A stretch of 64,000 bases of DNA from a virus: positions 1-64,000 of IMG/VR virus record IMGVR_UViG_3300037104_000592. The stretch is one strand, 5' to 3'. How positions within the stretch are numbered: position 1 is the stretch's first letter; each line of letters begins with the position of its first letter. Both the position numbers and the translations under genes were made by a program. Below the pieces are notes generated by a model. That model made no database searches. It was not told the DNA's origin and saw nothing but the letters and a program-made list of their open reading frames with translations. Shown here piece after piece: positions 16,408 to 61,710 of the stretch.

Positions 16408-17442
16408 ATGAAAACTTCAAAAAGAGAATATATTAAGAGCTGGTTTTTAAAAAAATATGAAAATAATAAATTAAAACCAAATACTTTTAGAATAATAAAA
16501 GAAAGCTTTCGAAATATATATGATGATATTATATCAGAAACTACATATCTAAATAAAAATTCAAGAATTTCAGAAAGATTGTTTCATATTTTTAATAATA
16601 TTTTTGAAGTTAAAAGATGTTTTTGTGAAAAAAATTTGGGTTATTTAGATATAAACAGAGGGTATGAAAGATGTTGTAAAAAGTGCAGACGTAAGGGGAA
16701 AATCAAACCAAAACTGTTGATTAATAAAAATAATATTTTATGTGATTATGGGTGTGGAAAATTAGCTAATTATATTTTATCAAACAATAAGAATTGTTGT
16801 AAACCAACTTTTGGAAAATGTGAAGCTATAGAACGAAAAATTCCAAGATCTAAAGTCAAGCATAAATATACATATAGTAAATGGATAAATAAATATCCAA
16901 TTTTGAAAGAAAATGAAGAACTTAGAAGTATAAATGAAATGTTAGAAGTTCAATGTAGAGAATGTAAGAACTGGTTTAGTCCAACTGCGGATCAATTATA
17001 TTTTAGAATTAAAGCGCTAGAAGATAAGAAAACTATCTATAAAAATAGAAATGTAAATTCTTATTTATTTTGTTCAAATGAATGCAAAGAAAAATCTTTA
17101 GAATATAGAAGAAGCAATACTATAGAAACTTCTAAAAAATATGAAAGTTATAGAAATATTGTTAATATAAAAACTATAAAAACTATAAGAAAACATAGAG
17201 ATAAAATTCTTAATATTGAGAATTGGAAAAAAGGAAATGCGATAGATCATAAATTTTCAGTTAGAGCTGGATTTGATAATAATATATCTACTGATATTAT
17301 TTCTCACTGGAAAAACCTTGAAGTTATGACATTTTCTATAAATGCAAAAAAACATAAAAAATGCTCAATAACTATTGATAAGTTGATTGAAGAGATTAAA
17401 AAAGATGATAAAAATTTTATATTTGAAGGAAAAACTAAATGA
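16408..17442 (+). CDS. Free-standing HNH endonuclease with CDYGCG module, inserted between beta' and beta
   Basis: LCDYGCG..KNCC; CRECKNWF..FCSNEC; IDHKFSV..HWKNLEV..N. Confidence 0.75.
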   Translation: MKTSKREYIKSWFLKKYENNKLKPNTFRIIKESFRNIYDDIISETTYLNKNSRISERLFHIFNNIFEVKRCFCEKNLGYLDINRGYERCCKKCRRKGKIKPKLLINKNNILCDYGCGKLANYILSNNKNCCKPTFGKCEAIERKIPRSKVKHKYTYSKWINKYPILKENEELRSINEMLEVQCRECKNWFSPTADQLYFRIKALEDKKTIYKNRNVNSYLFCSNECKEKSLEYRRSNTIETSKKYESYRNIVNIKTIKTIRKHRDKILNIENWKKGNAIDHKFSVRAGFDNNISTDIISHWKNLEVMTFSINAKKHKKCSITIDKLIEEIKKDDKNFIFEGKTK

Positions 17443-20400
17443 TTAGATTTGAAGTTTTCAAGCAATATTCACAAGTTACAGATGGATTGCGATATACTAT
17501 AAAAGAGCAACCATATATGCTGCTGTATCTCTCTGAAAACTCTACATTAATAGATGACTTTCACAAATTAAATATAAGATTAATAGATATTAGAATGGCA
17601 GTTATTCCTAGAACTACAATTCCGAGAACATTCTTAACTCCAGAACTTAGAAAAATATATAATAAAATACTGGGGTTATATTCATATCCAGCAAATATGA
17701 AAATTCCAAAAAATAAAAATTTTATATTTGATCCTACTAATTTTATAAAGGAGGTTGATGAAACCTATCATCCTGATAACTATAGACAAAAAGCAGGATT
17801 TTTAATTAAAAATCAATTAGAAAGCGCCCTTTTAAATTATCCAGGATATAAAAAAGTTTTGATATATTCAATAGATGTTACTAAAACTTTTAATAATTTT
17901 GTTGATAGAAAAATATTTCCTATAATTCAAGACTTAAAAAATAATGATATTAACTTTGATGATTTATTACTTGTAACTTTAAATGAATCTTCAGTTCGAT
18001 ATAGATTATTAGTTAAGGATAGAAAATTTGATTTTCAAAAAATTATGGTATATATAAAAACAATTAAACATATTGATCTTGAAGAAGAAGTTGAAGATGA
18101 AACAAAAGAAGCATCTGAAAAAGTAGCAGCGATTCTTCCAGCTCATATAAAAAATAAAGAAAAAATAAAAGATGCAGTTAAACATTATCTAAAAAAAGAT
18201 TCTAACACATTAGATAAGGTTAATAATAATGAATTTAAACCAGAAGAGTTAAAAACAATTGCTATAAAATCAGTTTTCTTTAGATCAACTAATAATATGG
18301 TAAGAGCAAATAATATAGTTGACAAAGTTAAACCTGAAAAAATTGATACATTATTAAAAGTTGTTGATAAACATTATGCAGATGAATTAATTCCAAAAAA
18401 AGATGTTGTAGACACAACTGATGATTTAGTTGTAAAGTCATATAATGTTAAATCTGCTGTAGGTAATAAAGCTCCAGATCATTTATTTATAAAAAGACAA
18501 ATGGATTTTAAAACAAATCTAAAGCATGATATGACTAATTCATTTAAGACATTAGAAACTAAAGAGATTCCATTAAAAATTGAAAAAATGGAAATTACAG
18601 ATAAACCACTTAAAAAGAATGAAATAATGAAATCAGATTTAAGTTTAGTTAAGGTTTCATTAAAAGATGAATTTGGAAAAAAACATAATGTAACAATTGA
18701 AATTCCAAAAATTGATCCTAATTCAGGAACGTTTAGAGTAAATGGGAGGACCAAGTGCTTAGTTAATCAAATAGTATTATGTCCAATAACATTTTTAAAA
18801 CCATATGACTCAAAATTTGAAAGTTCATATTCTACGTTTCATATTAGAAGTAAACGAACAAAGAGAATGAATTATTTAGAAATTTATATGGGTTCTTTCA
18901 AAAATTTACCTTTATTAATATTGTTAACATATAGTTTTGGATTTGATGAAACAATGAAACAATATGATATAAAGTATGAAATAAAAACAGAAAAACCAAA
19001 AAAGACTGAAAAGTTTGCATGTAAAATAAATGCAACCGAATATATTTACTTTGAAAATATTAATACAGAACTAAAACAAGAATTGATTACATCATTTATA
19101 AATGAAGGTATAGATAAATATGATATAAAACATAAATTTGGAACTAAAGAATATTTAAATGATTTGATTATAAAAATCACTGGAAGAGTTAATTCTACAT
19201 TTCTTTTAAATGCAAACCTTGAAAATATTATTGACCCAGTTGCAAAACAAGTTTTAATAAATAAAGGACTTCCTCATGAGTTGAAATATATAATGCAATA
19301 TATGGCTACCAAAGTTGTATCAGGTTTTTCTGAAAGTAGAAATGATTTAACAAATCAAAGAATTAGAGGATCAGAAGTAATAGTTAATTTAGCTCAAAAA
19401 CAAATTTTATCTGCATATACTGTATATAAAGAACAGGTTTTAGCAGGTAATAAAAATGCAGAATTTTTAGTTAATCCAACAAAAGTTTTGAGTGCATTTT
19501 TAAATTCAGAAATTGTTGTTGATATGGAATATGCAAACCCAATTGAAGAAATGGCGGTTATGACTAGAATATCTCCAGTTGGAAAATCTATTGGTGGTAT
19601 TGCAAATGCAAATGCAATTCAATCAAGCGCTAGAAATGTAAGTCCATCTTATTTTGGGAATATTGATCCTCTTGATACACCAGAAGGACCAAATGTTGGA
19701 ATAACTCAACAATTAGCTTTAGGAGCAATGGTATCATCTTCAAGAGGATTATTTACTACTAAAAAAATATCAAATGAAGAAGGATCTGGAATTTTATCTA
19801 CTTCTACTTGTATGATTCCATTTATTGAAAATAATGATGGAAATAGAATTCAATTTGCAGCTAATCAATCGAGACAAATGTTACCATTAAAAAACCCTCA
19901 ACCTCCAGTTATAAGATCTGGGTATGAATCTGTTTTAACGAATGTCTTATCTGATAATTTTATTAAAAAAGTTCCTGAGAGATCTAAAGTTTTATCAGTA
20001 ACAAGTGACCATATAATATTAGTTGGAAAATCAGGAAAAAAATATGATATTAATTTAACTCCTATTCATTTAAGATCTGGAACTGGTCGAGATACTTTAA
20101 GTATTTTTAAAACTAAAGTTGTTAAAGGTCAAATTGTAAATGAAGGACAAATTTTAGCAGAAGGAAGTTGTATAAAAGATGGAGCAATTTCTTTAGGTAG
20201 AACTTTATGTGTTGGGTATATGCCCTATAAAGGATATAATTTTGAAGATGGAATTATTATAAATGAAAAATTAGCAACAAATGATATGTTAACATCTTTG
20301 CATGGGTTAGAAGAAGAAGTTTTAATTTCTGAAAAAGATAGAGTTTTATTTATAGCAAATATTGGAGATAGACTTAAAAAAGGAGAACCATTACTAAGAA

Positions 20401-21533
20401 AAACTATTGGAGAAATTGAGCAATTAATTGGATTTGAAGATATTGAAGATGATACAACATCAGTATATGGTCAGGATTTAATTAAGACGAGTCCAGGTGG
20501 TCTTATTGTTGATCTTGAAGTTTTTTGTAATGTTAGTGATGAAAAATTTCCAAAATTAAAATTTTATATTGATAGAACAAGAAAAAGATATGGTGTTTCT
20601 GCAGATCAAAAATTTGTAGTAAAGGGAGTATCTATAAAAGGAGCTCTTGTAAGATTTAAAATAGAACAAGAATTAAAAATTGAAACTGGAGATAAATTAA
20701 CTAATAGATTTGGAGCTAAAGGAATCATTACATTAATAGAAAAAGATGATTTAATGCCAAGAACTCCGTGGGGAGATAGATTAGATGTTATATTAAATCC
20801 TTTGGGAATTATTGGTAGAATGAATCTTGGACAATTATATGAGTTATATTGTGGATTAATTTCTAGAGCTTTAGTTATTAAATTACTTTCTTCTAAAAAT
20901 AAAAAGCAAGCGCTAGATGTAATGACAAATGTTTTATCAAAATTAGATACATCTAAAAATAAAGAATATACAAATAAAATGGTTGGATCTATTGCAAAAT
21001 TAAGCGATAGACAATTTTCATTATTAATTACTCAGATAAAAGATAGTGGTTTTATTCCTATTATAATTCCACCATTTAAAGCTCCCAAACCTAATCAAAT
21101 AATGGAAGCTTTAAAAATGTTAGATTTGAAACCAGGATACCATTTGTATCTTCCTGAGTTTGGAATTAAAACACACGATGCAGTTCCTGTTGGATATATG
21201 TATGTTTCAAAACTAGAACATATTGGAGAGATGAAAATACATGGTAGATCAACTGGACCTGTTGTTGGAAAAACATCACAACCAACACAAGGAAAAAGTA
21301 GAGAAGGTGGTCAGAGATTAGGAGAGTCAGATGTTCATGTTTTAATTGGATATAATTGCCCAAAACTATTATCAGAATTAATGGGACCATTGTCTGACGA
21401 TACTATTAGTAAAAATGAAATGATTTCTGATATAATTCAAACAGGAGAAACAACCTTCAGAGTTCCTAAAATTTCTCCTGCTAAAGATTTATTAAACGCA
21501 TATTTTATTTCGTTAATGTTGGAGAATAAATAG
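17439..21533 (+). CDS. Phage multi-subunit RNA polymerase beta-like subunit (set 1) with long N-terminal extension
   Basis: DPLDTPEGPNVG, IPFIENNDGNR, GYNFEDGI, GDKLTNRFGAKG, NPLGIIGRMNLGQ, KLEH, GGQRLGE. Confidence 0.95.
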   Translation: MIRFEVFKQYSQVTDGLRYTIKEQPYMLLYLSENSTLIDDFHKLNIRLIDIRMAVIPRTTIPRTFLTPELRKIYNKILGLYSYPANMKIPKNKNFIFDPTNFIKEVDETYHPDNYRQKAGFLIKNQLESALLNYPGYKKVLIYSIDVTKTFNNFVDRKIFPIIQDLKNNDINFDDLLLVTLNESSVRYRLLVKDRKFDFQKIMVYIKTIKHIDLEEEVEDETKEASEKVAAILPAHIKNKEKIKDAVKHYLKKDSNTLDKVNNNEFKPEELKTIAIKSVFFRSTNNMVRANNIVDKVKPEKIDTLLKVVDKHYADELIPKKDVVDTTDDLVVKSYNVKSAVGNKAPDHLFIKRQMDFKTNLKHDMTNSFKTLETKEIPLKIEKMEITDKPLKKNEIMKSDLSLVKVSLKDEFGKKHNVTIEIPKIDPNSGTFRVNGRTKCLVNQIVLCPITFLKPYDSKFESSYSTFHIRSKRTKRMNYLEIYMGSFKNLPLLILLTYSFGFDETMKQYDIKYEIKTEKPKKTEKFACKINATEYIYFENINTELKQELITSFINEGIDKYDIKHKFGTKEYLNDLIIKITGRVNSTFLLNANLENIIDPVAKQVLINKGLPHELKYIMQYMATKVVSGFSESRNDLTNQRIRGSEVIVNLAQKQILSAYTVYKEQVLAGNKNAEFLVNPTKVLSAFLNSEIVVDMEYANPIEEMAVMTRISPVGKSIGGIANANAIQSSARNVSPSYFGNIDPLDTPEGPNVGITQQLALGAMVSSSRGLFTTKKISNEEGSGILSTSTCMIPFIENNDGNRIQFAANQSRQMLPLKNPQPPVIRSGYESVLTNVLSDNFIKKVPERSKVLSVTSDHIILVGKSGKKYDINLTPIHLRSGTGRDTLSIFKTKVVKGQIVNEGQILAEGSCIKDGAISLGRTLCVGYMPYKGYNFEDGIIINEKLATNDMLTSLHGLEEEVLISEKDRVLFIANIGDRLKKGEPLLRKTIGEIEQLIGFEDIEDDTTSVYGQDLIKTSPGGLIVDLEVFCNVSDEKFPKLKFYIDRTRKRYGVSADQKFVVKGVSIKGALVRFKIEQELKIETGDKLTNRFGAKGIITLIEKDDLMPRTPWGDRLDVILNPLGIIGRMNLGQLYELYCGLISRALVIKLLSSKNKKQALDVMTNVLSKLDTSKNKEYTNKMVGSIAKLSDRQFSLLITQIKDSGFIPIIIPPFKAPKPNQIMEALKMLDLKPGYHLYLPEFGIKTHDAVPVGYMYVSKLEHIGEMKIHGRSTGPVVGKTSQPTQGKSREGGQRLGESDVHVLIGYNCPKLLSELMGPLSDDTISKNEMISDIIQTGETTFRVPKISPAKDLLNAYFISLMLENK

Positions 21534-45904: not shown

Positions 45905-46243
45905 ATGGGATATGTAAGAAGATCAGAAAGAATTAAACATTTGAAACAGTATAAAGATATTAGATTAATTTTTAAGAATTTATTTGATACTCCAAATTTT
46001 ACAGATAATATTGTATATGGCGCAAGCTTTAAATGGTATTTTAATTCATTTTTAAGAAACAAATGGGGAAATGAAAAAAAAATAAAAGATAATGTTAAAA
46101 ATTTTCTAGAAAATAATTTGCGAGGTATAGGGTTTATTTTTGAAGTTAAATTATTACCTCATCCTTGGGCATCAAGATCAGGAATGTCTCCTAGTTTTAG
46201 AATTTTGACGAGGTTATATAATGGACCAAATTCAAATAGTTAG
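45905..46243 (+). CDS. Hypothetical basic protein
   Basis: 112-aa ORF with RBS. Confidence 0.5.
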   Translation: MGYVRRSERIKHLKQYKDIRLIFKNLFDTPNFTDNIVYGASFKWYFNSFLRNKWGNEKKIKDNVKNFLENNLRGIGFIFEVKLLPHPWASRSGMSPSFRILTRLYNGPNSNS

Positions 46244-47246
46244 TTGGCTTCTTACACGAAGATGTAATCTTAGATGTTCATATTGTAGAATATCTAGAGA
46301 TTATAAAGCACCTCCAGAATATAATTCAATGAAATATTTTCATCAATTAGAAATGAAAACGGAAGATATTTTAGAAACATTAAGAAGATTAAAGCTTCAT
46401 AATCCTAATGTTTTCCATATCTTTTACGGAGGAGAACCAACCCTTAGAACAGACTTATCAGAAATAATAGGATATTGTCATAAGGAATATATTAATTATA
46501 CCATCATTTCAAATATGACTGATAGACCCAAAGAAGTAATTGATAACTTAATTAAAGAACACGGATTCCTTCAAGGATTAACAGCGAGTATAGACCCTAT
46601 TATCATGGAAGAATATTCAAATGAGGATAGATGGAGAAAAACTTGGGGAGGATATAGCTTAAGAAAATATAGAGGAAAAGTAAAGGATTTAGTTGCTGAG
46701 ATAACTGTAAGTAATGATAATCTAAAGAATTTATATTCATTAGTTAGAAAATTAACAGATGATGGAATAAATTCTGATATTACTTTTGTTGATATAGCTA
46801 AATCTCCATATTATGATTTCTCTAATGTTACAGATGATGATTTATTAGTTTATAAATCAGCCGAATTAAGAGATATTATAAATAGAATAATTGGTGAAAA
46901 ATTAGATGTTCATATGAGAGATATTCTTTTACCTGCTATTTATGATATTCTTCCTTCTGAATTAGATTGTAAGATTGAAGATGATGTTCATAATATAACA
47001 ATTGATGCAGATGGAAGTATTCGATTATGTTTAAGAATTTGCGGAATTATAACTCCTGGATCTTTTAGGACTTCAAACTTTTTAGATGAAAATGGAAAAA
47101 TTCATGAAAGTTTAAAAGATGTATTAGGTCAAGATAAAAAAAGACTATGTCAAAAATGTAATTGGACCTGCCAGATTATGAGTTCTTTATTATCAAAAAA
47201 TGATGGAAATATTGAAAGTCTTCTTCATTCTGAAAGGAGATTATAA
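46221..47246 (+). CDS. Radical SAM protein with C-terminal Cys-rich (SPASM/twitch-like) region
   Basis: LTRRCNLRCSYC, GGEP, C..ITIDADG.I.LC, CQKCNWTC. Confidence 0.85.
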   Translation: MDQIQIVSWLLTRRCNLRCSYCRISRDYKAPPEYNSMKYFHQLEMKTEDILETLRRLKLHNPNVFHIFYGGEPTLRTDLSEIIGYCHKEYINYTIISNMTDRPKEVIDNLIKEHGFLQGLTASIDPIIMEEYSNEDRWRKTWGGYSLRKYRGKVKDLVAEITVSNDNLKNLYSLVRKLTDDGINSDITFVDIAKSPYYDFSNVTDDDLLVYKSAELRDIINRIIGEKLDVHMRDILLPAIYDILPSELDCKIEDDVHNITIDADGSIRLCLRICGIITPGSFRTSNFLDENGKIHESLKDVLGQDKKRLCQKCNWTCQIMSSLLSKNDGNIESLLHSERRL

Positions 47247-47993: not shown

Positions 47994-48368
47994 ATGACAA
48001 TGTTAGAAGAAATTCTAGAAAAAACAAAAACTTTACCCACTGATGATCAATTAAAACAAATTTGTGATCAAATACAAAAAGAAGAAGAAGAAAAATTTAG
48101 AGATTATTTAGGAGAGATGCCAAAAGGACCCAATATGTTTCTAGCAATTTGGGTTCCTGGAATTACAGGAAAAGAATTATGTTATGTATGTTTAGAAAGA
48201 GAATTTCCTGGTAAATATTTAGTAACTCTTTGGTCTAAATTATCCGAAAAAAGTATAATAAAAAAGAAATCATTAATAAGAACAAAAGTTTGGGAAGTTA
48301 AAGAAAGCGCTCCAAAAAAGATTTTAGAAGAATATGCTAAAATACTTAAGTTCATGAGAGGAAAATAA
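47994..48368 (+). CDS. Hypothetical protein coupled to the E2 gene
   Basis: AAGGAG RBS; stop overlaps the E2 ATG. Confidence 0.6.
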   Translation: MTMLEEILEKTKTLPTDDQLKQICDQIQKEEEEKFRDYLGEMPKGPNMFLAIWVPGITGKELCYVCLEREFPGKYLVTLWSKLSEKSIIKKKSLIRTKVWEVKESAPKKILEEYAKILKFMRGK

Positions 48369-50992
48369 TGGCCGAGCAAATATCACCTATATTTATTGAT
48401 GAAAATACAATTAAAGAAATATTTATAAATAGAGATTATACAAGACTCATAAGATCTTCTTATGATTCTAAAGCTAGAGATGTAAAATTGGATGAAACTA
48501 AACCAAAACTTGTAACATCTAAGATGAGAACAATAGATTTTTTTAATAAATTAAATAGTACAGATAGTAAACTAACAATTCTTCCTAGAAATTGTAGATT
48601 TACTAATAAAATAACTGATAGAACAATATACGTAATTGAAGATCCTCCTATGTTAAGAACAGTTAAATTTAATATAGGATTAGAATCTGAAATTGAAAAT
48701 TTAAGGAATAATGGTTTACTTACAAAGTTTGGATATGAAAATTTTCTAAATGATAATCCAAGTCCACCTTATAAAATACAACTTTCATTCCCGTATGTTA
48801 TTTATATTATAACTTTTGGGCAACATAATGAATTTTCAAATATGAAGTTATTTTATAGATTGCATCCTTTAACTGGAATAAAAGATTATTTACTCACAAG
48901 TAATTTATTGAATGTAGATTCTAACGGTTCTGTATGTTTAGGTCCACAAAATTCAAAAGATGTTACAGAAGTAAGTGATAAAGTAGATAATATTATAAAT
49001 TCTTTTTGGGGAAATGAGTTTAATAATGATATTACACATTCATATTTATCATATTCTAATCAAAGAGAAATTTCTACAATTCTAGCGTGGAAATATTATT
49101 CGAAAGTTGATCCAATGTTTATATTTGATGTGGAGTGGATAAAAAATACATATAATTTAGACTCATTTTTAAATTTTAAAAATTCTGGTGATGATATAAG
49201 AAGTTGTGAAAATATAATGTATAAACTTGAAGAGTATATTTTATATGATAAAGAAGATGAAGGACAAAAAGTTGTTGATAGAAGATATACTTATACCAGT
49301 CTTCCATTATTTGAAGATGAACAAAAGGGTTCTGACTATCTTGTAATTGGAGATGAAATTATATTTGAAGGGAAAAAATATTTTATATATGAAATAGTTC
49401 ATGAATCAGATGGAAAAATTATTGTTTCATTGGAAGACGAGAATGGAAAGTTAATTTATAAAAAATATAATACAGATTTTAGAGACAAAATAAGAAAAGA
49501 AACTTTGAAAAATAAAGAGCTTACAGAAATTAAAATTGATGGTCTTACTGTAAAAAAAGGAACCGTTTTAGAAGCATTTGATGGTTATAAAAAGAGATTA
49601 AAACATGTACAAAAAATAAGAAAGACCAGAGATGGAAAAATAGAAATACAATGTGAAAAAAGTTTCTACATGATTGAAGATGGGAGTTTAGCTGGAGTAA
49701 AAGTTTTTGATATTAATAATTTAACTATTTCTAATGGTTTAAAAATTGTTAATGGAAATAAGTACATGATTTTTAATAATATAACTAATCCTATATTTGA
49801 TATTCAAACTGGAATTTTTACAGATTTAAAAGTAACTAACGACACTGTCTACTATAATTTTAAATATGTCAGACCTGCTGATAAAAAAGAATCTACAATT
49901 AATTATAGTGGAGATACTCAAACAACTGAAGTTTTTGATTATGATGAAAAACTTTTAAATAATTCCATGTTTCCTTTCTTTAGACTTGGAAAAATGATCA
50001 TATCAAATATTGATAAAGATTATAAATTTCATATAATTAAAGGAAAAGGTATTGGGGTTACATCTTCTTCGGGTAATGTAATTGATAGATATGATTTTGG
50101 GAGATATTTAAATTCTGATAAAGATATAAAGGAGAAAATTTTAAAAGATAATAAATTAAGAATTCCATCATTTGATTTGGATATAGAATTTGATATTGGT
50201 GATAGAGTAGTTATAGCTGATTATTCTAAATCTTTAAAATATATTACTACAATAAGAACTATAACTGGATTTAAAATTGCAGGGGATAATCTTTTTGTAG
50301 ATACTGTAGATGAAAATAATATACCAGAAAGTACTCCTTATATAAATTTTAAAATTTATGATAAAAGTTATATTTATTCAAAATCTCCTAAAGTTAATAT
50401 TGGGTTAATTAGAAAAATAATAGATAATGATTTATTCAAAAGAGGAACTAAAGTAAGACCTAAGGTAAAAGGAATTTCATCATTTAAGAAAAAAGATGTT
50501 CATGAAATAGTTGGACTAATTACAGATACTGGGTCTAAACCTATTATTCTATGTTCAAATGGTCATACAATTTGGTGTGATGAAAAATCACTTGAAAATT
50601 TTGAACTTATAGATAAGAAATCTAAATTATATAATAAATCAAAATTAACAGAAATATTAGAAAATGAAAAAATATATTGTAAATTTCAATCTGGAGATTT
50701 AGCTGATATTAAAGATGTATATGATAGAACTTCATATGAAGATTCAATTCATCTTTGCGGTATAGGAGCAAATAATAGAATAATATTTAAAATTTTAAAT
50801 TCTTTAAATGTATATGGTTCATATAATAGATCTGGAAGAAGAATTATAAGTCAACAATATCAAACTATTCCTATGCCAAGATATTTACCAACAACTGAAT
50901 TAATAAGAGGGATTGGAGTTATTCCTAATTATCATGGTTGGTTTACTATTTCAAATAATTCGCTGTTTAAAATACAATTGGAGAAAATATAA
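48368..50992 (+). CDS. Prokaryotic E2 (family D / PRTRC-B-like) with ~600-aa beta-rich C-terminal extension
   Basis: LSFPYVIY..LFYRLHPL..LLNVDSNGSVCLG..FWGNEFN; adjacent to JAB, E1 and Ubl genes. Confidence 0.75.
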   Translation: MAEQISPIFIDENTIKEIFINRDYTRLIRSSYDSKARDVKLDETKPKLVTSKMRTIDFFNKLNSTDSKLTILPRNCRFTNKITDRTIYVIEDPPMLRTVKFNIGLESEIENLRNNGLLTKFGYENFLNDNPSPPYKIQLSFPYVIYIITFGQHNEFSNMKLFYRLHPLTGIKDYLLTSNLLNVDSNGSVCLGPQNSKDVTEVSDKVDNIINSFWGNEFNNDITHSYLSYSNQREISTILAWKYYSKVDPMFIFDVEWIKNTYNLDSFLNFKNSGDDIRSCENIMYKLEEYILYDKEDEGQKVVDRRYTYTSLPLFEDEQKGSDYLVIGDEIIFEGKKYFIYEIVHESDGKIIVSLEDENGKLIYKKYNTDFRDKIRKETLKNKELTEIKIDGLTVKKGTVLEAFDGYKKRLKHVQKIRKTRDGKIEIQCEKSFYMIEDGSLAGVKVFDINNLTISNGLKIVNGNKYMIFNNITNPIFDIQTGIFTDLKVTNDTVYYNFKYVRPADKKESTINYSGDTQTTEVFDYDEKLLNNSMFPFFRLGKMIISNIDKDYKFHIIKGKGIGVTSSSGNVIDRYDFGRYLNSDKDIKEKILKDNKLRIPSFDLDIEFDIGDRVVIADYSKSLKYITTIRTITGFKIAGDNLFVDTVDENNIPESTPYINFKIYDKSYIYSKSPKVNIGLIRKIIDNDLFKRGTKVRPKVKGISSFKKKDVHEIVGLITDTGSKPIILCSNGHTIWCDEKSLENFELIDKKSKLYNKSKLTEILENEKIYCKFQSGDLADIKDVYDRTSYEDSIHLCGIGANNRIIFKILNSLNVYGSYNRSGRRIISQQYQTIPMPRYLPTTELIRGIGVIPNYHGWFTISNNSLFKIQLEKI

Positions 50993-52020
50993 TGTTTAAA
51001 ATAGTTTGTTTAGATGGAACACAAAAAATACCAGAAGATGATATTTGTTATATTATAGCTAAGGGTGGGGTATATCTTAAGAAAAAAGTTGGAATGATTG
51101 AATCTTTAGCTCCAGTAAAGAATATTTCAATTTTAGAAGATGTTCAACCATATGCTAAAATGAATATTCCAAAAATCTCTGGTGAAGATTTTGGAAAAGT
51201 TATGAGTTTTTTCAAAAAAGTTTATGAAGAACATAAATCTGAAGCAATAGTTCTTTTATATTATAATCCAAAAAAAGCAACTTATAAATTTTATGTTCCA
51301 CATCAAAAAGTAAGTGGTGCTGGAGTTGATTATGTAAAAGGAGTTTCTATAGCAAATCATATTCAAGTAGGAACTATTCATAGTCATGCTAATTTTTCAG
51401 CATTTCATTCTGGAACAGATGATAGTGATGAAGAACATTTTGATGGAATTCATATAACAATTGGTGATAACACCGATGCTTTTCCATCTATCACTGCATC
51501 AATTGTTATAAATGGAACCAGATTTACAATAAATCCTATTGATTATGTAACAAAAATGGAAATTGTAGAATATACTAATTATTTTCCTCATATGTTCAGA
51601 CCATCTTTCACAGAAATAAATGGAGTCAGAGAATATAAATCTAATGTAAAAACTCAACTTGGATATCAGCTAATGATTTCAGACCAAGATAAAAAATTTA
51701 ATGAAGCATGGTTAAAAATGATTGAGAATGTTAGACCTACTATAACTAATATCCCATTTTATACACAAGAACACTATTTGGATTTATTTGATCCTAATAG
51801 AAAAGATAAGCAAGACAGATCTTATAGATACACATGGACTCCAGGTTCTACTAAAAAGAATAATCGTCCTGCTTATAATCCTTGTGAAAGTTGTGTTTTT
51901 AAAAAATATAAATCAGACGATGAAAGAAAATCAATAACACAAGAGGACATACAACAAAGTTTCTCTGATATTTGGGATGATTATAATGTGTATGATGATC
52001 CTTGGGGAAATTTAATATGA
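50992..52020 (+). CDS. JAB/MPN+ metallo-isopeptidase (deubiquitinase-like)
   Basis: Upstream SEA Glu; GTIHSHANFSAFHSGTDDSDE (HxH-x7-S-x2-D). Confidence 0.9.
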   Translation: MFKIVCLDGTQKIPEDDICYIIAKGGVYLKKKVGMIESLAPVKNISILEDVQPYAKMNIPKISGEDFGKVMSFFKKVYEEHKSEAIVLLYYNPKKATYKFYVPHQKVSGAGVDYVKGVSIANHIQVGTIHSHANFSAFHSGTDDSDEEHFDGIHITIGDNTDAFPSITASIVINGTRFTINPIDYVTKMEIVEYTNYFPHMFRPSFTEINGVREYKSNVKTQLGYQLMISDQDKKFNEAWLKMIENVRPTITNIPFYTQEHYLDLFDPNRKDKQDRSYRYTWTPGSTKKNNRPAYNPCESCVFKKYKSDDERKSITQEDIQQSFSDIWDDYNVYDDPWGNLI

Positions 52021-52721
52021 GATTTAATGATATTTCTATAGTGGGTTTGGGTGGAATAGGCTCAATTTTAAGTAATACTATTTCAAGATTTATAAGTAAC
52101 GATGCTAGAGAAAATGATCCAAGACAAATTATAAATTTAATTGATGGAGATTATTATGAAGAAAAAAACTTAGTTAGACAAGAATTTTTAAGATTTGGAA
52201 ATAAAGCAGAATCTAAATTAAATGAATTAAGACCAAAATTTAATAATATTGAATTTAAAGATTATCCATATTTTATAGATGATATAACTATTTCTAGAAT
52301 AATTAAAGATAAAGATTTAGTATTTTTAGCAGTTGATAATCATAAAACAAGAAAATTAGTAAGTGATTATGCAAAAAAACTAAATGATATAATTATAATT
52401 TCAGGAGGAAATGAGCTAGAAGATGGTAATGTTCAATTGTATATTAGAAAAGATGGAGAAGATGTTACTCCATCTTTAACTGATTATCATCCAGAAATCA
52501 GAAACCCAATTGATAAATTACCAAATGAAATGAGCTGCGAAGAGTTACAAAACTCTGAACCACAACTATATTTTACAAATTTAGGAGTGGCAACTTTTAT
52601 GGCTTTTGCATTTTACAATGTCCTAAAAGGCTCAAATAATTTTTCAGAAGTATATTTTGATATGAACACAATGAAAGCTGATTCAAAAACAAGAAACTTA
52701 AAAAAAGAAAAAGGAGAGTAA
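52017..52721 (+). CDS. ThiF/E1-like activating enzyme
   Basis: IVGLGGIGS, LIDGD, KNLVRQ, NKA, AVDNHKTR, SGGN, candidate catalytic Cys in MSCEE. Confidence 0.9.
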   Translation: MRFNDISIVGLGGIGSILSNTISRFISNDARENDPRQIINLIDGDYYEEKNLVRQEFLRFGNKAESKLNELRPKFNNIEFKDYPYFIDDITISRIIKDKDLVFLAVDNHKTRKLVSDYAKKLNDIIIISGGNELEDGNVQLYIRKDGEDVTPSLTDYHPEIRNPIDKLPNEMSCEELQNSEPQLYFTNLGVATFMAFAFYNVLKGSNNFSEVYFDMNTMKADSKTRNLKKEKGE

Positions 52722-52730
52722 GGATTTATT

Positions 52731-53204
52731 ATGGCTAAAAAAGTATATTCGGCAGAGGAACTTTATAACAAAACAGTATCAGAACTTCGTGAAATGTGTG
52801 TTAAGTTTGGGATTACGGGTATGAGTAAAAGGAGAAAAGATGAGATTGTAGATGCTCTTTGTGATTATTATGAAGATACAGCACCTGAACCCCAAGTTAA
52901 AACACCAGTTTCTTCTTCATCTATCGTTTCTATGAATGCTCAACTTTCGAGTTATAGAAACCCCGATTCAAAAAATGATGACGATAAATACATCACCAAT
53001 ATTTTTGTGTCTTGCGGCGCAGCTTCTGGAAACTTCCCAGTTGTTGGAAAGAAAGTTGGAGCAGTTGCTGAATTCCTAAGAGAAGTTCTTAATATCGACC
53101 GTTTAAGTGTTGGAGTTGTGAATGGTGAAGAAGTTGAAGATAGTTATCTTCTTGCATCTGGAGATTCTCTTGAATTTCTAAAAGCAGGTGGTCGTAAAGG
53201 TTAA
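52731..53204 (+). CDS. Ubiquitin-like protein with N-terminal Rho-N-like (helix-extension-helix) domain
   Basis: N-terminal KTVSELREMCVKFGITGMSKRRKDEIVDAL; C-terminal beta-grasp VNGEEV..SYLL.SGDSLEFLKAGGRKG ending in Gly. Confidence 0.85.
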   Translation: MAKKVYSAEELYNKTVSELREMCVKFGITGMSKRRKDEIVDALCDYYEDTAPEPQVKTPVSSSSIVSMNAQLSSYRNPDSKNDDDKYITNIFVSCGAASGNFPVVGKKVGAVAEFLREVLNIDRLSVGVVNGEEVEDSYLLASGDSLEFLKAGGRKG

Positions 53205-54227: not shown

Positions 54228-54240
54228 AGAACAAATAAAA
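54228..54240 (+). promoter_or_regulatory. Putative late-promoter motif AGAACAAA
   Basis: Lies in the gap before the GGAGG RBS of the second E1. Confidence 0.45.
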
Positions 54241-54256: not shown

Positions 54257-55132
54257 GTGTATAAAGATATAGCGATTATAGGTTTAGGAAGTATAGGAGG
54301 TTTTTTATCGAGCAATATCATAAACATAGACACAATAAAATCTTTGGTTTTAGTTGATTATGATAGAGTAGAACTGGAAAATTTGAAAAATTCAATTTAT
54401 AAAAAATCAGATGTTGGGAAATTTAAAGTTGAATGTGTATCTTCCGTTATAAAATTGTTCAATAGTGAAATAAATATTACAGCAATAAAAGATAGATATA
54501 TAGAGGGAAAAACAAAAATTCCAAAATGCGATTTAGTTATTGATTGTAGAGATTTTGTTTATGATAGAGGTTCAGAAATAAATATGAGATTATATATCTC
54601 TTCTAGACATTTAATAATTGATTGTAGAAAAGATATAAAATATCAATTACACTATGAAGGAAAATATATAGATACATTAACAAAATCTGATATTTATTCT
54701 GCTACAGCTAATTTGTCAAGATTGATATTTAATGAAGAATTAAATGATATAATTAAAAACAATTTAGTTCATACAATAGATATGGATGAATGCTTAAAAT
54801 CAAGTGAAGAAACTTTAAATAACTATAATAATAAAATGGAAGTTGTTATGGATTATCATAAAAAGAATGATTGTTTCATAAATTTTCTTGAAAATGCAGA
54901 AAATATAATAAATTTCAATAAAAAAAGTGAAGTGAAAATTTGTCTAAACGATAAAAGATTTCCATTATCTACTAAAATAATACCAAAAAATTATATTCAA
55001 AATGTAAATGACTTAAGTAAAAATTTTTTATCAATAATACCAGCTAAAAATCATAGTAGTTATATAGTTAAATCAATTATAGAAAAAAATATTTGTTATG
55101 TAATTTTAATACCAGAAACAGGGGCTGCTTAA
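54257..55132 (+). CDS. Second, divergent ThiF/E1-like protein
   Basis: IAIIGLGSIGG, LVDYDRVELENL, DVGKFKV, DLVIDCRD; GTG start with GGAGG RBS. Confidence 0.8.
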   Translation: MYKDIAIIGLGSIGGFLSSNIINIDTIKSLVLVDYDRVELENLKNSIYKKSDVGKFKVECVSSVIKLFNSEINITAIKDRYIEGKTKIPKCDLVIDCRDFVYDRGSEINMRLYISSRHLIIDCRKDIKYQLHYEGKYIDTLTKSDIYSATANLSRLIFNEELNDIIKNNLVHTIDMDECLKSSEETLNNYNNKMEVVMDYHKKNDCFINFLENAENIINFNKKSEVKICLNDKRFPLSTKIIPKNYIQNVNDLSKNFLSIIPAKNHSSYIVKSIIEKNICYVILIPETGAA

Positions 55133-55134
55133 AA

Positions 55135-55476
55135 ATGAGCATAAAAACTATTACTATTGAGAAAAAAATAACACCAAGAATTGCTATTTATAAACGAGAT
55201 GCCTTTGATATTTTAGAGGTTGATCCAGAATTCATGATAAATAAATATGAGATAACTTTAAAAGAATCAAAAGTAGTTTCTTTAAAATTATTTGCTTTAC
55301 ATCCAAATTGTAATCCAGATACTGGAGAATTTTGTTTAGGTCCTGACATAATTGAAAATCAAGCAAATGAATATCTTTTAGAAAAAGTTATTCCTTATAC
55401 ACTATCAGTATATAATTTAGATAGTTGTTATTTCAGGCCAAAAAATGGAAAAGTAAAATATGGAATAATGAAATGA
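55135..55476 (+). CDS. Minimal UBC/E2-like protein
   Basis: LHPNCNPDTGEFCLG (HPN-x8-C); immediately downstream of the E1-like gene. Confidence 0.65.
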   Translation: MSIKTITIEKKITPRIAIYKRDAFDILEVDPEFMINKYEITLKESKVVSLKLFALHPNCNPDTGEFCLGPDIIENQANEYLLEKVIPYTLSVYNLDSCYFRPKNGKVKYGIMK

Positions 55477-55926: not shown

Positions 55927-58623
55927 ATGCCAAATATATTAAACATAGATAAGTTTTGTGAAAACTTAAAAGGAATTTCTTCTTTAAAAGCTATTGATAA
56001 AAGAAAATTCCATCCAAATGGATTATTCTCAGAGCAGATATTTGGTCCTTTAAAAAATTATACATGTCAATGTGGAATATATCATGGAGTATCCAATGCA
56101 GGTGGAACTTGCGAAATATGTGGAGTTGATATTGTTCATAGTATTGAGAGAAGAAGAAGATTTGGAAAAATTGTTCTACCTTTGAAAGTTGTTAATCCAA
56201 TTTTTTATGATTTGGTTATAAAATTGGGTGGAAATATATTAAAAAAGAATATAGATGAGTTAATGAAAAATGAAAAAAGTTATTTATATAAAGATGAAAA
56301 TGATTATATTGTAGAAACTAAGTTACCCCATCCTACTAATACTCAAATATGGGATAGATCTGAAGCAATTTTTGAATTAGTAAATGGACTTGCTACAGAG
56401 TTGGGAAATAATGAAAGTGGAATGGGAATTAAAGAATGGGAATTAATAAAAAATAATATTGATTGTTTATTTATTAAAAATGTTATAGTGTTACCACCTG
56501 ATTTAAGACCTGCTGCAAAAGGAATGGATAAGAACGATCAACGAATGGATAAGATAAATAGATTTTATGTTCAAATTCTTACAAAAAAAGAAAGTATGAG
56601 AAATACTCCTATAAATATAGAAACTGATAAAAGCGTATATTACAATTTTTTCAAGCAATTACAGAGAGATGTTAATGAATTATATGAACATATTATTTCA
56701 AAAATATCCAAGAAAGAAGGTTTAATAAGAGGAAATATTTTAGGGAAGAGAATAGATTTCTCAGGTAGAGCTGTTATTGTTCCAGAACCTTCTTTGAAAT
56801 TAGATGAATGTAGTCTTCCATATTTAATGGTTTTAGAATTATTTAAAATTCAATTATCTAAAAAACTTATAGATTTAAAACAGTTTAAATTATTAAATGA
56901 AGCAATTGATTTTGTTGATAGGTGTATAGAATTATCAGATCCTATTTTATTTAATATTTGTCAAGACATAGTTAAAAATGAAGTTTGTTTACTTAATAGA
57001 CAACCAACTTTACATAGATTAGGAATGATTGGATTTAAGATAAAAACTTCTTTAGATAAAGTTATAAAGATACACCCCCTAGTTTGTCCAGGATTTAATT
57101 CGGATTTTGATGGAGATCAAATGGCAGTATATATTCCGATTTCTGATAGGACAAAAGCAGAAGTTAGAGAAAAATTTATGTCAACTAAAAATTTATCTAA
57201 TCCTTCAAATGGAAGTTTAATTACTATTCCAAGTCAGGATATGGTTTTAGGAATTTATATGTTGACTACATCATCATTTGGAGAAGTTGAATATAAAGGT
57301 GAAAAAATAACAATTGGATCCAAAATATTCAATGAATGTTTACCAAGTGATTATCCATTAATAAATGGTTCAATAAATAATAAGATCTTAAAAGAAACAT
57401 TAAATGATATTAAAAATAAATATCCAGATGAAATAGTAACTGAAGTATTAGATAAAATAAAAGAAGTTGGTTTTAGATTTTCAACAATATATGGAACCTC
57501 AATGTCTTTGAAGCATATTTCAATTGATGGAATTGATAAAATTAAAAATGATATTTATTCATTGGATAATATTCAAGATCAATTATCTGCAATCTCTAGT
57601 AAAAAAACTGAAGATATAATGAGGAAAAACTTTAAATATTCTTATCTTATAGATTCAGGTGCAAGAGGAAAATGGGATCAGGTAAGACAAATAATTTTAA
57701 CAAGAGGATATATTTCTAATTTTCAAGGAGATATTCTCCCAACCCCAATAAAGCATAATTTAATAGAAGGTTTAGATCAACAAGAGTTTTTTAATTCAAC
57801 ATACGGTTGTAGAAAAGGATTATTAGATGTTGCATTAAATACAGGTGATTCTGGATATTTATCTAGAAAATTAATTTTCACTTGTGTTAACTTAATAATT
57901 GGGGAAGAAGATGATTGTGGAACAACAGATTATCTTGATATATTAGTTACTAGTGAAAAGAAAGCAAAAATGTTAATTGGAAGATATTATTTAAATGATG
58001 GAAATTTATCTGAAATAACAGTTGAAAATCATAAAGGATTTGTTGGAAAATTAATTCAACTTAGAAGTCCTATTTTCTGTAAAAATGAAGAACTATGTCA
58101 TAAATGTTATGGAAACTTATATAAAAATTTACATAGTAAGTTTGTAGGAATTATAGCTGCTCAAGCATGTGGAGAAGCTGGAGTTCAGCTAATTTTGAGA
58201 ACATTCCATACAAGTGGTGTAGCAAAGATTTCGGAAGATCAAACAGATATGAGACAGTCAGATATCGTAAGTGATTTATCTTCTGTATCAAAAGTTCTTC
58301 ATAATAAAGATAAAAAGGAATATAAAGAATTAGTTTCTAATTTATTTGACTTATATATTATAAATAGAGATATTCACCATATTCATTTTGAATGTATAAT
58401 TTCTCAAATGATGTGGAAAGGTTTTAGAAAATGGAGACTTCTACCAAATAGAGATAAAATTTCTTCAGACTATTATTCAATTCAAACAGTTCCTGAAAAA
58501 GAAAGTTGGATTGTAGGATTAGCTTTCTCAAATCCAAAAAACCATATTTTAAAAGGAATTGTTCAAGATGGAAATTATAAAGGAATTTTTGATAAAATAA
58601 TGCTAGGAGAAATACCTAGATAA
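55927..58623 (+). CDS. Phage multi-subunit RNA polymerase beta'-like subunit (set 2)
   Basis: GLFSEQIFGP, Zn finger CQC..CEIC, VLPPDLRP, GKRIDFSGRAVI, NRQPTLH, FNSDFDGDQMA, RKGLLD, LRTFH. Confidence 0.95.
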   Translation: MPNILNIDKFCENLKGISSLKAIDKRKFHPNGLFSEQIFGPLKNYTCQCGIYHGVSNAGGTCEICGVDIVHSIERRRRFGKIVLPLKVVNPIFYDLVIKLGGNILKKNIDELMKNEKSYLYKDENDYIVETKLPHPTNTQIWDRSEAIFELVNGLATELGNNESGMGIKEWELIKNNIDCLFIKNVIVLPPDLRPAAKGMDKNDQRMDKINRFYVQILTKKESMRNTPINIETDKSVYYNFFKQLQRDVNELYEHIISKISKKEGLIRGNILGKRIDFSGRAVIVPEPSLKLDECSLPYLMVLELFKIQLSKKLIDLKQFKLLNEAIDFVDRCIELSDPILFNICQDIVKNEVCLLNRQPTLHRLGMIGFKIKTSLDKVIKIHPLVCPGFNSDFDGDQMAVYIPISDRTKAEVREKFMSTKNLSNPSNGSLITIPSQDMVLGIYMLTTSSFGEVEYKGEKITIGSKIFNECLPSDYPLINGSINNKILKETLNDIKNKYPDEIVTEVLDKIKEVGFRFSTIYGTSMSLKHISIDGIDKIKNDIYSLDNIQDQLSAISSKKTEDIMRKNFKYSYLIDSGARGKWDQVRQIILTRGYISNFQGDILPTPIKHNLIEGLDQQEFFNSTYGCRKGLLDVALNTGDSGYLSRKLIFTCVNLIIGEEDDCGTTDYLDILVTSEKKAKMLIGRYYLNDGNLSEITVENHKGFVGKLIQLRSPIFCKNEELCHKCYGNLYKNLHSKFVGIIAAQACGEAGVQLILRTFHTSGVAKISEDQTDMRQSDIVSDLSSVSKVLHNKDKKEYKELVSNLFDLYIINRDIHHIHFECIISQMMWKGFRKWRLLPNRDKISSDYYSIQTVPEKESWIVGLAFSNPKNHILKGIVQDGNYKGIFDKIMLGEIPR

Positions 58624-58644
58624 AAAATTTTAACACCTCAGGAG

Positions 58645-61600
58645 GTGAAATTAGTGGATATAATAAATCCAAACTATAAAATAAATGAAGAAAACAATAT
58701 ATTTTCAATAAGAGAAAAAGAATATAACTTAATAAAAGATAATGTAAGAGAAATTTTAAAAGCAGCAGAAGAAGTTGGTTTTTTAGTTAATGAACTTGGA
58801 ATAACGGAATCTAAATTCTCATCTGGAGAATTACAGAAAACATTAAAGAAAAATTTAGTTATAAAATTAAGACGAGGATCTTCTGACATAGACTTATCTA
58901 TGGCTATTCCAAAATTAATTGATAAAAATTATGTTATAATTGGAGGAAGGAAAAAAGTTCCTTTATTTCAATTATTTGATATTCCTGTAGTTACAAGAGG
59001 AAAAACTATAAAAATCAGAACCAATGTAGCAAGTATGATGATAGTAGATGAAAAAGAATTTCCATTTATTCATCTATCAATTTTTAATAAAAAAGTTCCA
59101 TTGTCCTTAGTCATATTTGCTTACTATGGTTTAGAAGAAACAAAAAATAAATTTAGTTTAGATAAAATAGAAATTCCTGAAATAAAAACTTTACATGATA
59201 AATTAATGACAGATTTAAAAGATTTTTATGAAGGATCAGAAGGGTTTACAAAAGAAGAATTTATCAAAGAAGTTGGTAAATTCTTCTCAACAAATGATGC
59301 AAAAAATAAAGGTGAAGATTTAATTTATGCTCTAGATCTTATTTTAAAGACCGATATAATGTCAGCTAAATTTTTCAAAACTGGAAACATTTTAGATGAA
59401 ATTGTTGAGGTTATTAAATTAGGTGGTTATGATGATACTGATTTAAGAAATAAAAGAGTAAGGTGTTTTGAATATGTAATTTTAGCTAAAGTATCTAAAG
59501 CAATATTTGATCTATGTATGTCAAATAGATCAACCACAAGACAAGCTAAATTTAATGTAAATTCCAGTCAAATTTTATCAGATTGTAATGTTTCAGATAT
59601 TGTTCAATTTGATTTTTCAATAAATCCAATTGAACAATTAACAAAATTAACAAGAACAAGTTTGGTTGGTCCTGGTGGGTTTGACAGAGAAAATGTTCCA
59701 GAATATCTAAGAGATATTAATCCATCAATGTTTGGAAGAATTTGTCCTGTTGATACTCCTGATAGAGATAACTGTGGAATATTACAAAGTTTATTACCAA
59801 ATACACCATTAGATGAAAATTTAAAATTTACAGATGAATCATTAGAAAAATCACCTATTTCTATTCCAGTTTCTTTAGTTCCATTTTTAGAACATGATGA
59901 TCAAACTAGATTACAAATGGCATCATCACAAATGAGACAGTCTATTATGTTATCAGAGTTTGAAGTTCCTATGGTTCAATCGGGATGTGAAGGGTTATAT
60001 ACAGATCATAGTAGCTTTATAAAAAAGGCTAGAAAAAATGGAAAAGTATCTTATGTAGATCAGTTTAATATAATTATTGTTTATGATGATAATGATTATG
60101 ATATTTTTGATGTATCAAATAGAAGAATATATGTTGAAAATATGGATGTTATGAACATATATGTTTCTAAAGGAGATAAAGTTAAAAAAGGAACGATTAT
60201 TGCTGAAAGTAATTATTGTAAAGATGGAAAAATAAATTTTGGAAGAAATTTATTAACAGCTGTTATGCCATATTATGGATATAATTATGAGGATGCAATT
60301 GTTATTTCTGATAGATTAGTAAAAGAAAATATTTTTACATCTATTCATTATATTGATTTATCATTTGTATTACCAGCAGATAAAATTTTACTTAGTTTAG
60401 AAAAAGATAAATATAAACCCCTTCCAACTCCAAAACCATATATAGATTTGGAAGAAGGAATTACAGAAGAAGAAAAAAGAAAAAGAAAAAGAGAATTAGT
60501 TTTAAAGGGTCAACATTATGCTATAATTAAACAAATTCCATCTACTACTTTGGATTACAATTCTATTTTCGAGGAAGAGATACCTTTAACTGCTAAAAGA
60601 GATATTTTAGTAACTGAAGTAAATATTTATCCTAATAAATGGAATGACTCAATTCCAAAATTTAATGAATGGATAGATAAAAAATCTAAAGAACAAATAG
60701 ATCAAGAGAATAAATTTAAGAGAATTATTTATGAAAATCTACCAAAAAGAAATGCTGATCAATATATAAGAGATCATAATCTAGATAGATTTTCTCATAT
60801 TGGAAAGTTTAAAATTAAAGGTGAAGAAATAAAAGGAACTTTAATTGAGATGTTTGGTTTTTATGTTAGACCAATTACTATTGGAGATAAGATTGGAAAC
60901 AGACATGGAAATAAAGGTGTAATTTCAAAAATAGTTCCACATAATCTTATGCCTAAATTAGAAGATGGAAGAAATGTTGATATATGTATAAATCCTTTAG
61001 GTGTTCCTTCGAGAATGAATGTTGGTCAAATATTTGAGTTACATTCTGCAATGTCTTTATATGATTTAAAAAAGACTATGTTAAAAATGATAAAAGAAGG
61101 AAAATCCAAAGACGAATTGAAAACATATATTTTAAATTATATTAAAATCATTGATAATACAGAAAATAATTGGTATTATAAACAGTTTGAAAAAAATATA
61201 AAAACTATAAATAAAAAGTTTATAGAAGATCTTACTATTCTTGCTCCACCATTTGAATCATCAACTAGAAAAATGATATTAGATGCTTGTGAATATACAA
61301 ATACCAAAACTGAATTTAAAGTATACGAACCATATGAAAAAATTGATATTCATGATATAGCTTGTGGGTTTATATATTTCTTTAGAATGGTTCACATAGC
61401 TGAAAATAGATTAGCAGCTAGAGGGATTGGTTCATATGGAAGAAGAACAATGCAACCAGGTGGTGGTCGTAAACACAAAGGAGGACAACGTTGTGGAGAG
61501 ATGGAAATCGCAGCAATCATTGCTCATGGTGGACTTGAAAATCTATATGAAACTTTAACAACCAAGTCAGATTGTATAGATCTTAAAAATAAACATATTA

Positions 61601-61710
61601 AGCAAGAAATAGGATCAGATTTCTTTAGAGAAAAAGAAGGAGATATTATAAAACCTGAAGCAGTTCAGCTTTTAGAGAATTATCTAACTGTTTTGGGTAT
61701 AGAAAAATAA
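58645..61710 (+). CDS. Phage multi-subunit RNA polymerase beta-like subunit (set 2)
   Basis: GRICPVDTPD, PFLEHDD, GYNYEDAI, GDKIGNRHGNKG, NPLGVPSRMNVGQ, GGQRCGEME. Confidence 0.95.
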   Translation: MKLVDIINPNYKINEENNIFSIREKEYNLIKDNVREILKAAEEVGFLVNELGITESKFSSGELQKTLKKNLVIKLRRGSSDIDLSMAIPKLIDKNYVIIGGRKKVPLFQLFDIPVVTRGKTIKIRTNVASMMIVDEKEFPFIHLSIFNKKVPLSLVIFAYYGLEETKNKFSLDKIEIPEIKTLHDKLMTDLKDFYEGSEGFTKEEFIKEVGKFFSTNDAKNKGEDLIYALDLILKTDIMSAKFFKTGNILDEIVEVIKLGGYDDTDLRNKRVRCFEYVILAKVSKAIFDLCMSNRSTTRQAKFNVNSSQILSDCNVSDIVQFDFSINPIEQLTKLTRTSLVGPGGFDRENVPEYLRDINPSMFGRICPVDTPDRDNCGILQSLLPNTPLDENLKFTDESLEKSPISIPVSLVPFLEHDDQTRLQMASSQMRQSIMLSEFEVPMVQSGCEGLYTDHSSFIKKARKNGKVSYVDQFNIIIVYDDNDYDIFDVSNRRIYVENMDVMNIYVSKGDKVKKGTIIAESNYCKDGKINFGRNLLTAVMPYYGYNYEDAIVISDRLVKENIFTSIHYIDLSFVLPADKILLSLEKDKYKPLPTPKPYIDLEEGITEEEKRKRKRELVLKGQHYAIIKQIPSTTLDYNSIFEEEIPLTAKRDILVTEVNIYPNKWNDSIPKFNEWIDKKSKEQIDQENKFKRIIYENLPKRNADQYIRDHNLDRFSHIGKFKIKGEEIKGTLIEMFGFYVRPITIGDKIGNRHGNKGVISKIVPHNLMPKLEDGRNVDICINPLGVPSRMNVGQIFELHSAMSLYDLKKTMLKMIKEGKSKDELKTYILNYIKIIDNTENNWYYKQFEKNIKTINKKFIEDLTILAPPFESSTRKMILDACEYTNTKTEFKVYEPYEKIDIHDIACGFIYFFRMVHIAENRLAARGIGSYGRRTMQPGGGRKHKGGQRCGEMEIAAIIAHGGLENLYETLTTKSDCIDLKNKHIKQEIGSDFFREKEGDIIKPEAVQLLENYLTVLGIEK

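Follow-up and report, generated by a model that had tools for sequence, protein, structure and literature searches.

The DNA examined here, hereafter the window, comprises positions 1–64,000 of the 82-kb IMG/VR virus record IMGVR_UViG_3300037104_000592, for which CheckV gives a completeness of 26%. The GC content of the window is about 26%, and every gene in it lies on the + strand. The same DNA was found again in peat and permafrost metagenomes from several studies, and its source is an uncultured giant (jumbo) peat phage. Within the window, we focus on two consecutive genes on the + strand, one encoding a 291-aa non-canonical ThiF/E1-like adenylating enzyme (E1b, 54,257–55,132) and the other a 113-aa minimal E2 that resembles ubiquitin-conjugating (UBC) enzymes (E2b, 55,135–55,476). 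The open reading frame of E1b starts with GTG, with GGAGG located 6 nt upstream, and ends with a TAA stop codon at 55,132; the ATG start codon of E2b follows at 55,135, leaving a gap of 2 nt. These coordinates, the gap, an HPN-x8-C motif in E2b and the sequence ENLKNS in E1b had all been reported in a preliminary description of this DNA, and each was recovered in our analysis.

How might E1b function? By its score against Pfam ThiF (62.9 bits, cut-off 28.1; the match spans residues 5–101 only) and by its full adenylation fold, the protein belongs to the ThiF/MoeB/E1 superfamily. In the AlphaFold2 (AF2) model, which has a predicted local distance difference test score (pLDDT) of 90.6, residues 1–186 (54,257–54,814, + strand) form a complete E1 adenylation (Rossmann) domain, and in structure comparison these residues superpose on entire adenylation domains. 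The domain contains a GxGxxG loop (G9, G11, G14), D34/D36, N42-L-K44-N-S, K57, D96-C-R-D99 and R104; D34, K57, D99 and R104 are aligned by HMMER with MoeB D62, K86, D130 and R135. E1b has more than 228 homologues, 278–309 aa in length, and we counted residue conservation in 128 distinct sequences with identities down to 32%. G9, G11, G14, N42, K57, D96, R98 and Y137 are invariant (128/128), and D34 (127 sequences), D36, E83, C97, D99 (126), R104 (127), D122 and G135 (127) are conserved in at least 98%. It had been proposed that adenylation may be altered or lost in E1b, which has ENLKNS (N42-L-K44-N45-S46) in place of NLxRQ. The pattern of conservation counts against lost nucleotide binding: the GxGxxG loop, the ribose Asp, the MoeB-type Lys, the Mg Asp and the Arg are all present, invariant or at least 98% conserved, within a full adenylation fold, and the proposal is not upheld. 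At position 44, K is found in 65 and R in 28 of the 128 sequences (K or R in 93), and position 45 is N in 107. What is truly unusual in E1b, as judged from the aligned sequences, is the absence of the NLxRQ Arg and of an invariant catalytic Cys. In the crossover loop (residues 123–142), which keeps an invariant G135-x-Y137, position 123 is Cys in 106 of the 128 sequences (83%) and F, T, G or A in the rest.

The partner protein E2b contains LHPNCNPDTGEFCLG, in which H56, P57, N58 and C67 form the HPN-x8-C active-site motif (55,300–55,335, + strand). Among 1.84 billion cluster representatives, an exhaustive search with HMMER yielded 131 relatives, 26 of them at E ≤1e-10 and nearly all 100–160 aa in length; a word-index search with E2b returned only E2b itself. 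Conservation was assessed in an alignment of 77 sequences and later in 143 distinct homologues, among which P14, H56 and C67 are invariant, P57 is found in 140 (98%) and N58 in 141 (99%). E2b thus shows the hallmark of the E2 superfamily, an HPN located 7–8 residues N-terminal to the catalytic Cys, and because the motif is conserved over the whole family, it is more than a chance resemblance. A second Cys, C98, lies in an NLDxCYF motif and is 80% conserved. E2b matched nothing in Pfam, PHROGs, NCBIfam or PADLOC; against Pfam UQ_con (PF00179), E2b itself was unmatched, and one of the 77 family members matched with an E value of 0.017.

The predicted fold of E2b is consistent with this signature. 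The AF2 model built from the family alignment (pLDDT 96.2) consists of a five-stranded meander, a long loop bearing the HPN and Cys67, one helix (residues 79–90) and two short C-terminal strands, and lacks α1 and α3/α4 of the canonical UBC fold. Three independent structure searches with this model retrieved UBC E2s nearly exclusively. Among structures in the PDB, Foldseek returned E2 enzymes nearly alone, yet with E values of at least 0.14 and template-modelling (TM) scores of about 0.4; in the viral library BFVD, the best match is a mimivirus E2. When the E2b profile was compared with PDB sequences, its HPN...C and HPNVNFKTGEICL of 5nkz, the Pex4 E2, fell in the same phase, although the match was not significant (E value 0.6). 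We call the fold UBC-like because a single superfamily is enriched nearly exclusively and the signature is invariant, although the absolute scores are weak. The UBC fold suggested for E2b in the preliminary description therefore appears to apply to a UBC-like core, with the helices named above missing. In one metagenomic homologue of 300 aa (P0211), Asp replaces the catalytic Cys (HPNADPESKELDLP), and the E2b domain is fused to an extension of approximately 200 aa of no known family; this protein may be an inactive offshoot resembling the ubiquitin E2 variants (UEVs).

A scan of IMG/VR with the E1b alignment identified 79 related loci, with E1b identities of 32–59%, and E1b homologues occur on contigs of up to 312 kb. 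In all 78 loci that have downstream DNA, E2b directly follows E1b. The start was refined in 66 loci, and in 57 of these the two genes lie −4 to +8 nt apart; the commonest arrangement is a 1-nt overlap of stop and start codons. In all 79 loci, the order of the block is p124 - 874-aa E2-like protein - JAB - E1a - Ubl (ubiquitin-like protein) - (p172) - (p95) - E1b - E2b - (p71) - (p75) - RNA polymerase (RNAP) β′ - RNAP β. This arrangement bears on the suggestion that the pair is a decoy or inhibitor of host defences, which would mimic, titrate or hijack the E1–E2 machinery of host Bil, Bub or type II CBASS (cyclic oligonucleotide-based antiphage signalling system). Variability is the rule for accessory anti-defence genes. 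E1b and E2b, in contrast, keep the same position, order and coupling in 78/78 loci, between core genes and the phage RNAP and at E1b identities down to 32%, which makes it unlikely that they are a variable counter-defence decoy. They belong to the fixed core of a deep phage lineage, and their catalytic residues are strongly conserved. Both by structure and in PADLOC (E1-E2 models), E1b indeed comes closest to the Cap2 E1 domains of CBASS, and the known bacterial systems of this type serve in phage defence (PMC10557695, PMC11601596). On balance, we regard a counter-defence role as very improbable.

The HPN and Cys of E2b are thus conserved in its homologues, its core is UBC-like and the two genes co-occur throughout the lineage. 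Since the pair passed these checks, any of which could have refuted the idea, we favour a second route of conjugation that would employ an E2 of another class. The separate timing that had been attributed to this route fits the upstream motif described below. In our best-supported reading, the pair forms the second half of a Ubl-conjugation island that is a fixed core feature of an uncultured large-phage lineage. We assign a probability of roughly 60% to the proposal that E1b and E2b constitute a translationally coupled, catalytically competent, non-canonical second E1–E2 relay.

What would such a relay act upon? Beyond the adenylation domain, residues 226–291 of E1b (54,932–55,129, + strand) are predicted by AF2 to form a β-β-α-β-β domain of beta-grasp-like topology (strands 226–230 and 238–242, helix 250–258, strands 269–276 and 279–286; pLDDT 78–95 in these blocks) with a flexible tail, whose last residues have a pLDDT of 47. 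The tail reads L-I-P-E-T-G-A-A (55,106–55,129, + strand) and follows the family pattern L-[IL]-P-E-T-G-[ASG]-A; among the 128 sequences, G289 is found in 128, A291 in 127, T288 in 121 and E287 in 116. Of the 13 gene families of the block, E1b has the most conserved C-terminus, with the tails of Ubl and p124 ranking next. In the model, the C-terminal domain has the appearance of a beta-grasp modifier that ends in a reactive tail; an equally legitimate alternative is that it resembles a ubiquitin-fold domain (UFD) that docks the E2. An hhalign comparison of the C-terminal 72 aa of E1b (69 sequences) with the C-terminal domain of Ubl (61 sequences) detected no similarity, as in negative controls, and a profile of the domain gave only noise against PDB sequences and Pfam. 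In the ESM Atlas, where the models were of low confidence, neither E1b 222–291 nor p124 had a usable match.

The genes themselves, the conservation of both families, the folds, the invariant motifs, the synteny and the position-specific upstream motif are shown by our analysis, and from them we infer each chemical step of the relay, its substrate and its target. First, the invariant active-site residues suggest that E1b would bind Mg-ATP. Second, E1b would adenylate a C-terminus composed of small residues. One candidate for this substrate is its own ...PETGAA tail on the beta-grasp-like domain, possibly trimmed to G289 by JAB; the other is the neighbouring Ubl (52,731), whose usual end is ...AG[RK]KG(C) and not GG. 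Third, since no catalytic Cys is invariant in E1b, acyl transfer to Cys67 of E2b would proceed directly or by way of the invariant Tyr137, which would then act as in Bub E1s. Fourth, E2b, with its stripped-down UBC fold and HPN oxyanion motif, would pass the acyl group to a target lysine. A more specific version of this scheme, which we advance tentatively and consider rather unlikely, is that E1b is a self-contained fusion of an E1 and its modifier. The ...PETG(AA) tail, trimmed by JAB or as it is, would then be presented to the partner protomer at its adenylation site, a mixed oxyester/thioester relay would carry the acyl group through a Tyr137 oxyester to the E2b thiol, and the enzyme or its C-terminal domain would become attached to a target such as the adjacent RNAP or a host protein.

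The preliminary description had noted a motif of E1b's own, and AGAACAAA is present at 54,228–54,235 (+ strand), 22 nt upstream of the E1b start, as a candidate promoter or start-of-unit signal. Over the window as a whole, this 8-mer is not enriched (10 copies against 8.2 ± 3.0 expected). In 19/77 related loci, an exact copy precedes the E1b start by no more than 130 nt (17 distinct sequences, mostly 5–45 nt away), whereas for the 12 remaining families of the block the number is 0–1 loci each. It was present in 15/70 segments upstream of E1b and in 1/70 control segments located 600 nt further upstream; copies with one mismatch were not enriched upstream of E1b (20, and 25 in the controls). Over the 79 loci, AGAACAAA occurs 107 times on the + strand and 19 times on the − strand. 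This position-specific occurrence fits the start of a separate transcription unit in part of the lineage, and we consider AGAACAAA a candidate promoter motif for one phage RNA polymerase. At window positions 3037, 10,431, 40,106 and 54,228, the element followed by T or C (AGAACAAA[TC]) lies in intergenic DNA, after a gene end and before the next ribosome-binding site. We also observed the heptamers TGAAACC and CTGAAAC within 120 nt upstream of E1b in 14–18 of 70 distinct loci. Two peat metatranscriptome libraries contain short contigs that match E2b (55,285–55,435), E1b (54,474–54,669), Ubl and the JAB/E1a junction exactly or nearly so. These contigs are a weak hint of block expression, because DNA carry-over is possible; they cover short pieces of the block and cannot show transcription, transcript ends or expression level.

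Upstream of the pair lies a first module (48,368–53,204, + strand), identified by Pfam, NCBIfam and synteny, which resembles a PRTRC cassette and encodes the 874-aa E2-like protein, the JAB peptidase, E1a and a Ubl with a Rho_N head. E1a matches TIGR03736 (5.6e-10) and leans to PRTRC_ThiF, and JAB matches PRTRC_A (2.3e-8), both PRTRC matches being sub-threshold; the module also gave matches to Prok-E2_D (0.014) and Rho_N (6.7e-7). E1b is closer to ThiF/MoeB, and its PRTRC_ThiF match reaches an E value of only 0.0086. The only similarity between E1a and E1b is confined to 50 residues around the Gly loop (E 1e-4), and the two are therefore not recent duplicates. In the window, Ubl (52,731–53,204) ends in AGGRKG, and its relatives mostly end in ...P-A-G-[RK]-K-G, at times with an extra Cys. 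Because the Gly-Gly is not conserved, the reactive residue may be a single Gly, either terminal or at −4, instead of a GG pair.

Several features of this block weigh against our reading of E1b as a catalytic E1. E1a is fully canonical, with NLVRQ and with N56, R59, Q60 and C179 invariant in 66/66 sequences, so that E1b could be its non-catalytic partner. E1b lacks the NLxRQ Arg (MoeB R73) typical of the superfamily, the N-terminal Arg-finger helix and the invariant crossover-loop Cys of thioester-type E1s; its C-terminal domain has no profile similarity to the Ubl of the block or to any Ubl family, and its substrates are candidates only. One might suppose, then, that E1b is the non-catalytic or regulatory subunit of a heterodimeric E1 with E1a, comparable to SAE1/NAE1 for UBA2/UBA3, that its C-terminal domain is a UFD-like dock for E2b, and that Ubl (52,731) is the sole modifier, with E2b as its E2. 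In a purely structural subunit, however, one would not expect the Gly loop, D34/D36, K57, D99 and R104 to be invariant or nearly so over deep divergence, nor would a docking role account for the invariant TG[ASG]A tail. Moreover, E1a and E1b are separated by two or three genes and the position-specific upstream motif, and the prokaryotic E1s solved so far are homodimeric (PMC11601596). We therefore judge a heterodimer to be unlikely.

The gene content of the block also bears on whether the relay involves protein conjugation at all. E1b might instead be an adenylase of the ThiF/MoeB/MccB/TcdA type that serves a sulfur relay or modifies peptides or nucleotides, the Cys of E2b being the carrier, perhaps tied to a conserved upstream radical-SAM gene or to nucleic-acid modification. 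The complete HPN-x8-C signature on the UBC-like core of E2b, however, is that of conjugating enzymes. The same block also encodes a JAB peptidase, a Ubl and a second E2-like protein, and no rhodanese (sulfurtransferase) domain was found in E1b by the Pfam scan. This explanation seems to us quite improbable, and conjugation by the E1b–E2b relay remains our preferred reading.

Other genes of the region deserve mention. In an hhalign comparison, E2b (55,135–55,476) and the N-terminal 300 aa of the 874-aa protein (48,368–49,270) are colinear over 84 columns at a non-significant probability of 1.4%, with HPNcxPxTxEFCLP...IE..L..NLD of E2b aligned to LLNVDSNGSVCLG...IE..I..FN.D of the larger protein; from this alignment, the two may be related as very distant paralogues. 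At the head of the block, p124 (47,994–48,368) encodes a conserved end ...[FY][LM]-R-G-[EK] (G 82% and E 80% in 56 sequences), a terminus of the ubiquitin-like 'RG+1' type, on a predicted helix, four strands and a helix; p124 could be a further modifier or a UEV/RWD-like protein. Four genes ahead of the block, a radical-SAM gene (46,221–47,246) is syntenic in the three loci L001–L003. The window contains two separate unsplit multisubunit RNAP β/β′ sets, at 13,375–21,533 and 55,927–61,710, and the second β′ has at most 30% identity to anything in GenBank phage records.

We found no DNA match and no protein match of E1b or E2b among the GenBank phages (50,697 records), and a pattern scan of 185,579 prokaryote genomes confirmed no relative of E1b; the scan used the E1b alignment, as the E2b alignment was too variable to serve as a query. 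The pair is therefore apparently limited to an uncultured phage lineage. In a full-text literature search, we found no description of E1, E2 or JAB genes of jumbo phages, and two reviews of jumbo phages (PMC7824862, PMC13282480) do not mention genes of this kind. The characterised prokaryotic E1/E2 systems, Cap2, Bil and Bub, are bacterial anti-phage defences, and in their E2s the HPN is gone or another residue has taken the place of the Cys (10.1101/2022.03.31.486616, PMC10557695, PMC11601596). Here, instead, two E1/E2 pairs belong to the core genes of a deep lineage of large phages and lie beside RNAP. E2b is the smallest UBC-like E2 in this analysis and has a canonical HPN-x8-C; in its partner E1b, the classical Arg and Cys are missing, whereas a Tyr is invariant and the tail is conserved. 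This combination suggests that the phage has a protein-tagging chemistry of its own. Should the pair prove active, phages would be seen to employ ubiquitin-like tagging in their own programme, a minimal E2 is at hand for mechanistic studies, and it becomes testable whether HPN-type E2 chemistry is older than eukaryotes.

A comparison with known systems places the pair more precisely. E2b shares with the canonical eukaryotic and archaeal UBC E2s (UQ_con; UBE2K, UBE2T and Pex4), which are nearly its sole structural neighbours, the HPN eight residues before the catalytic Cys and the core of β-meander, active-site loop and α2. The canonical features of E2s include an HPN 7–8 residues before the Cys, a Trp and a Pro-rich β3–β4 motif (10.1101/2022.03.31.486616); E2b lacks α1, α3/α4, the Trp after the Cys and the Pro-rich motif. 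In type II CBASS, Cap2 (PDB 7tsq/7to3) is an E2–E1 fusion with the E2 Cys on a hairpin and a catalytic Cys in the crossover loop of its E1; its E2 has no HPN, and it conjugates a non-Ubl protein, cGAS, through the cGAS C-terminus (10.1101/2022.03.31.486616). E1b and E2b, in contrast, are phage-encoded, are separate genes in the order E1-then-E2 and have no invariant loop Cys. No fused E1–E2 form was found among the 131 relatives of E2b or the 228 of E1b, and the nine block proteins scanned gave no match to a CD-NTase family, whereas Cap2 lies next to a CD-NTase.

In the Bub system (BubCD/BubB), the E1s lack a crossover-loop Cys and require an invariant loop Tyr (Ye et al., PMC11601596), and we infer from loop position alone that E1b Tyr137 may be the equivalent of BubCD Y370. 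E1b is nevertheless not fused to a JAB domain, the Pfam scan of the block gave no match to DUF6527 (BubE), and BubB uses Ser-His (PMC11601596) in contrast to the invariant Cys and HPN of E2b, so the pair does not fall within the Bub (6E) group. With Bil (BilABCD) and the PRTRC or '6d' cassette, the block shares the gene set of E1, E2, JAB and Ubl. A further likeness would lie in the trimming by JAB of one or more residues beyond the reactive Gly; in BilA, a terminal Ala after this Gly must be removed by JAB (PMC10557695). The IAD-AAD-CYS architecture of BilD and the CEHH that BilB carries in place of the HPN (PMC10557695) set Bil apart, and the E1b/E2b pair has no counterpart in the Bil or PRTRC cassettes. 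Because it keeps both the HPN and the Cys, E2b is unlike all three characterised bacterial E2-like proteins, namely the Cap2 E2, BilB and BubB.
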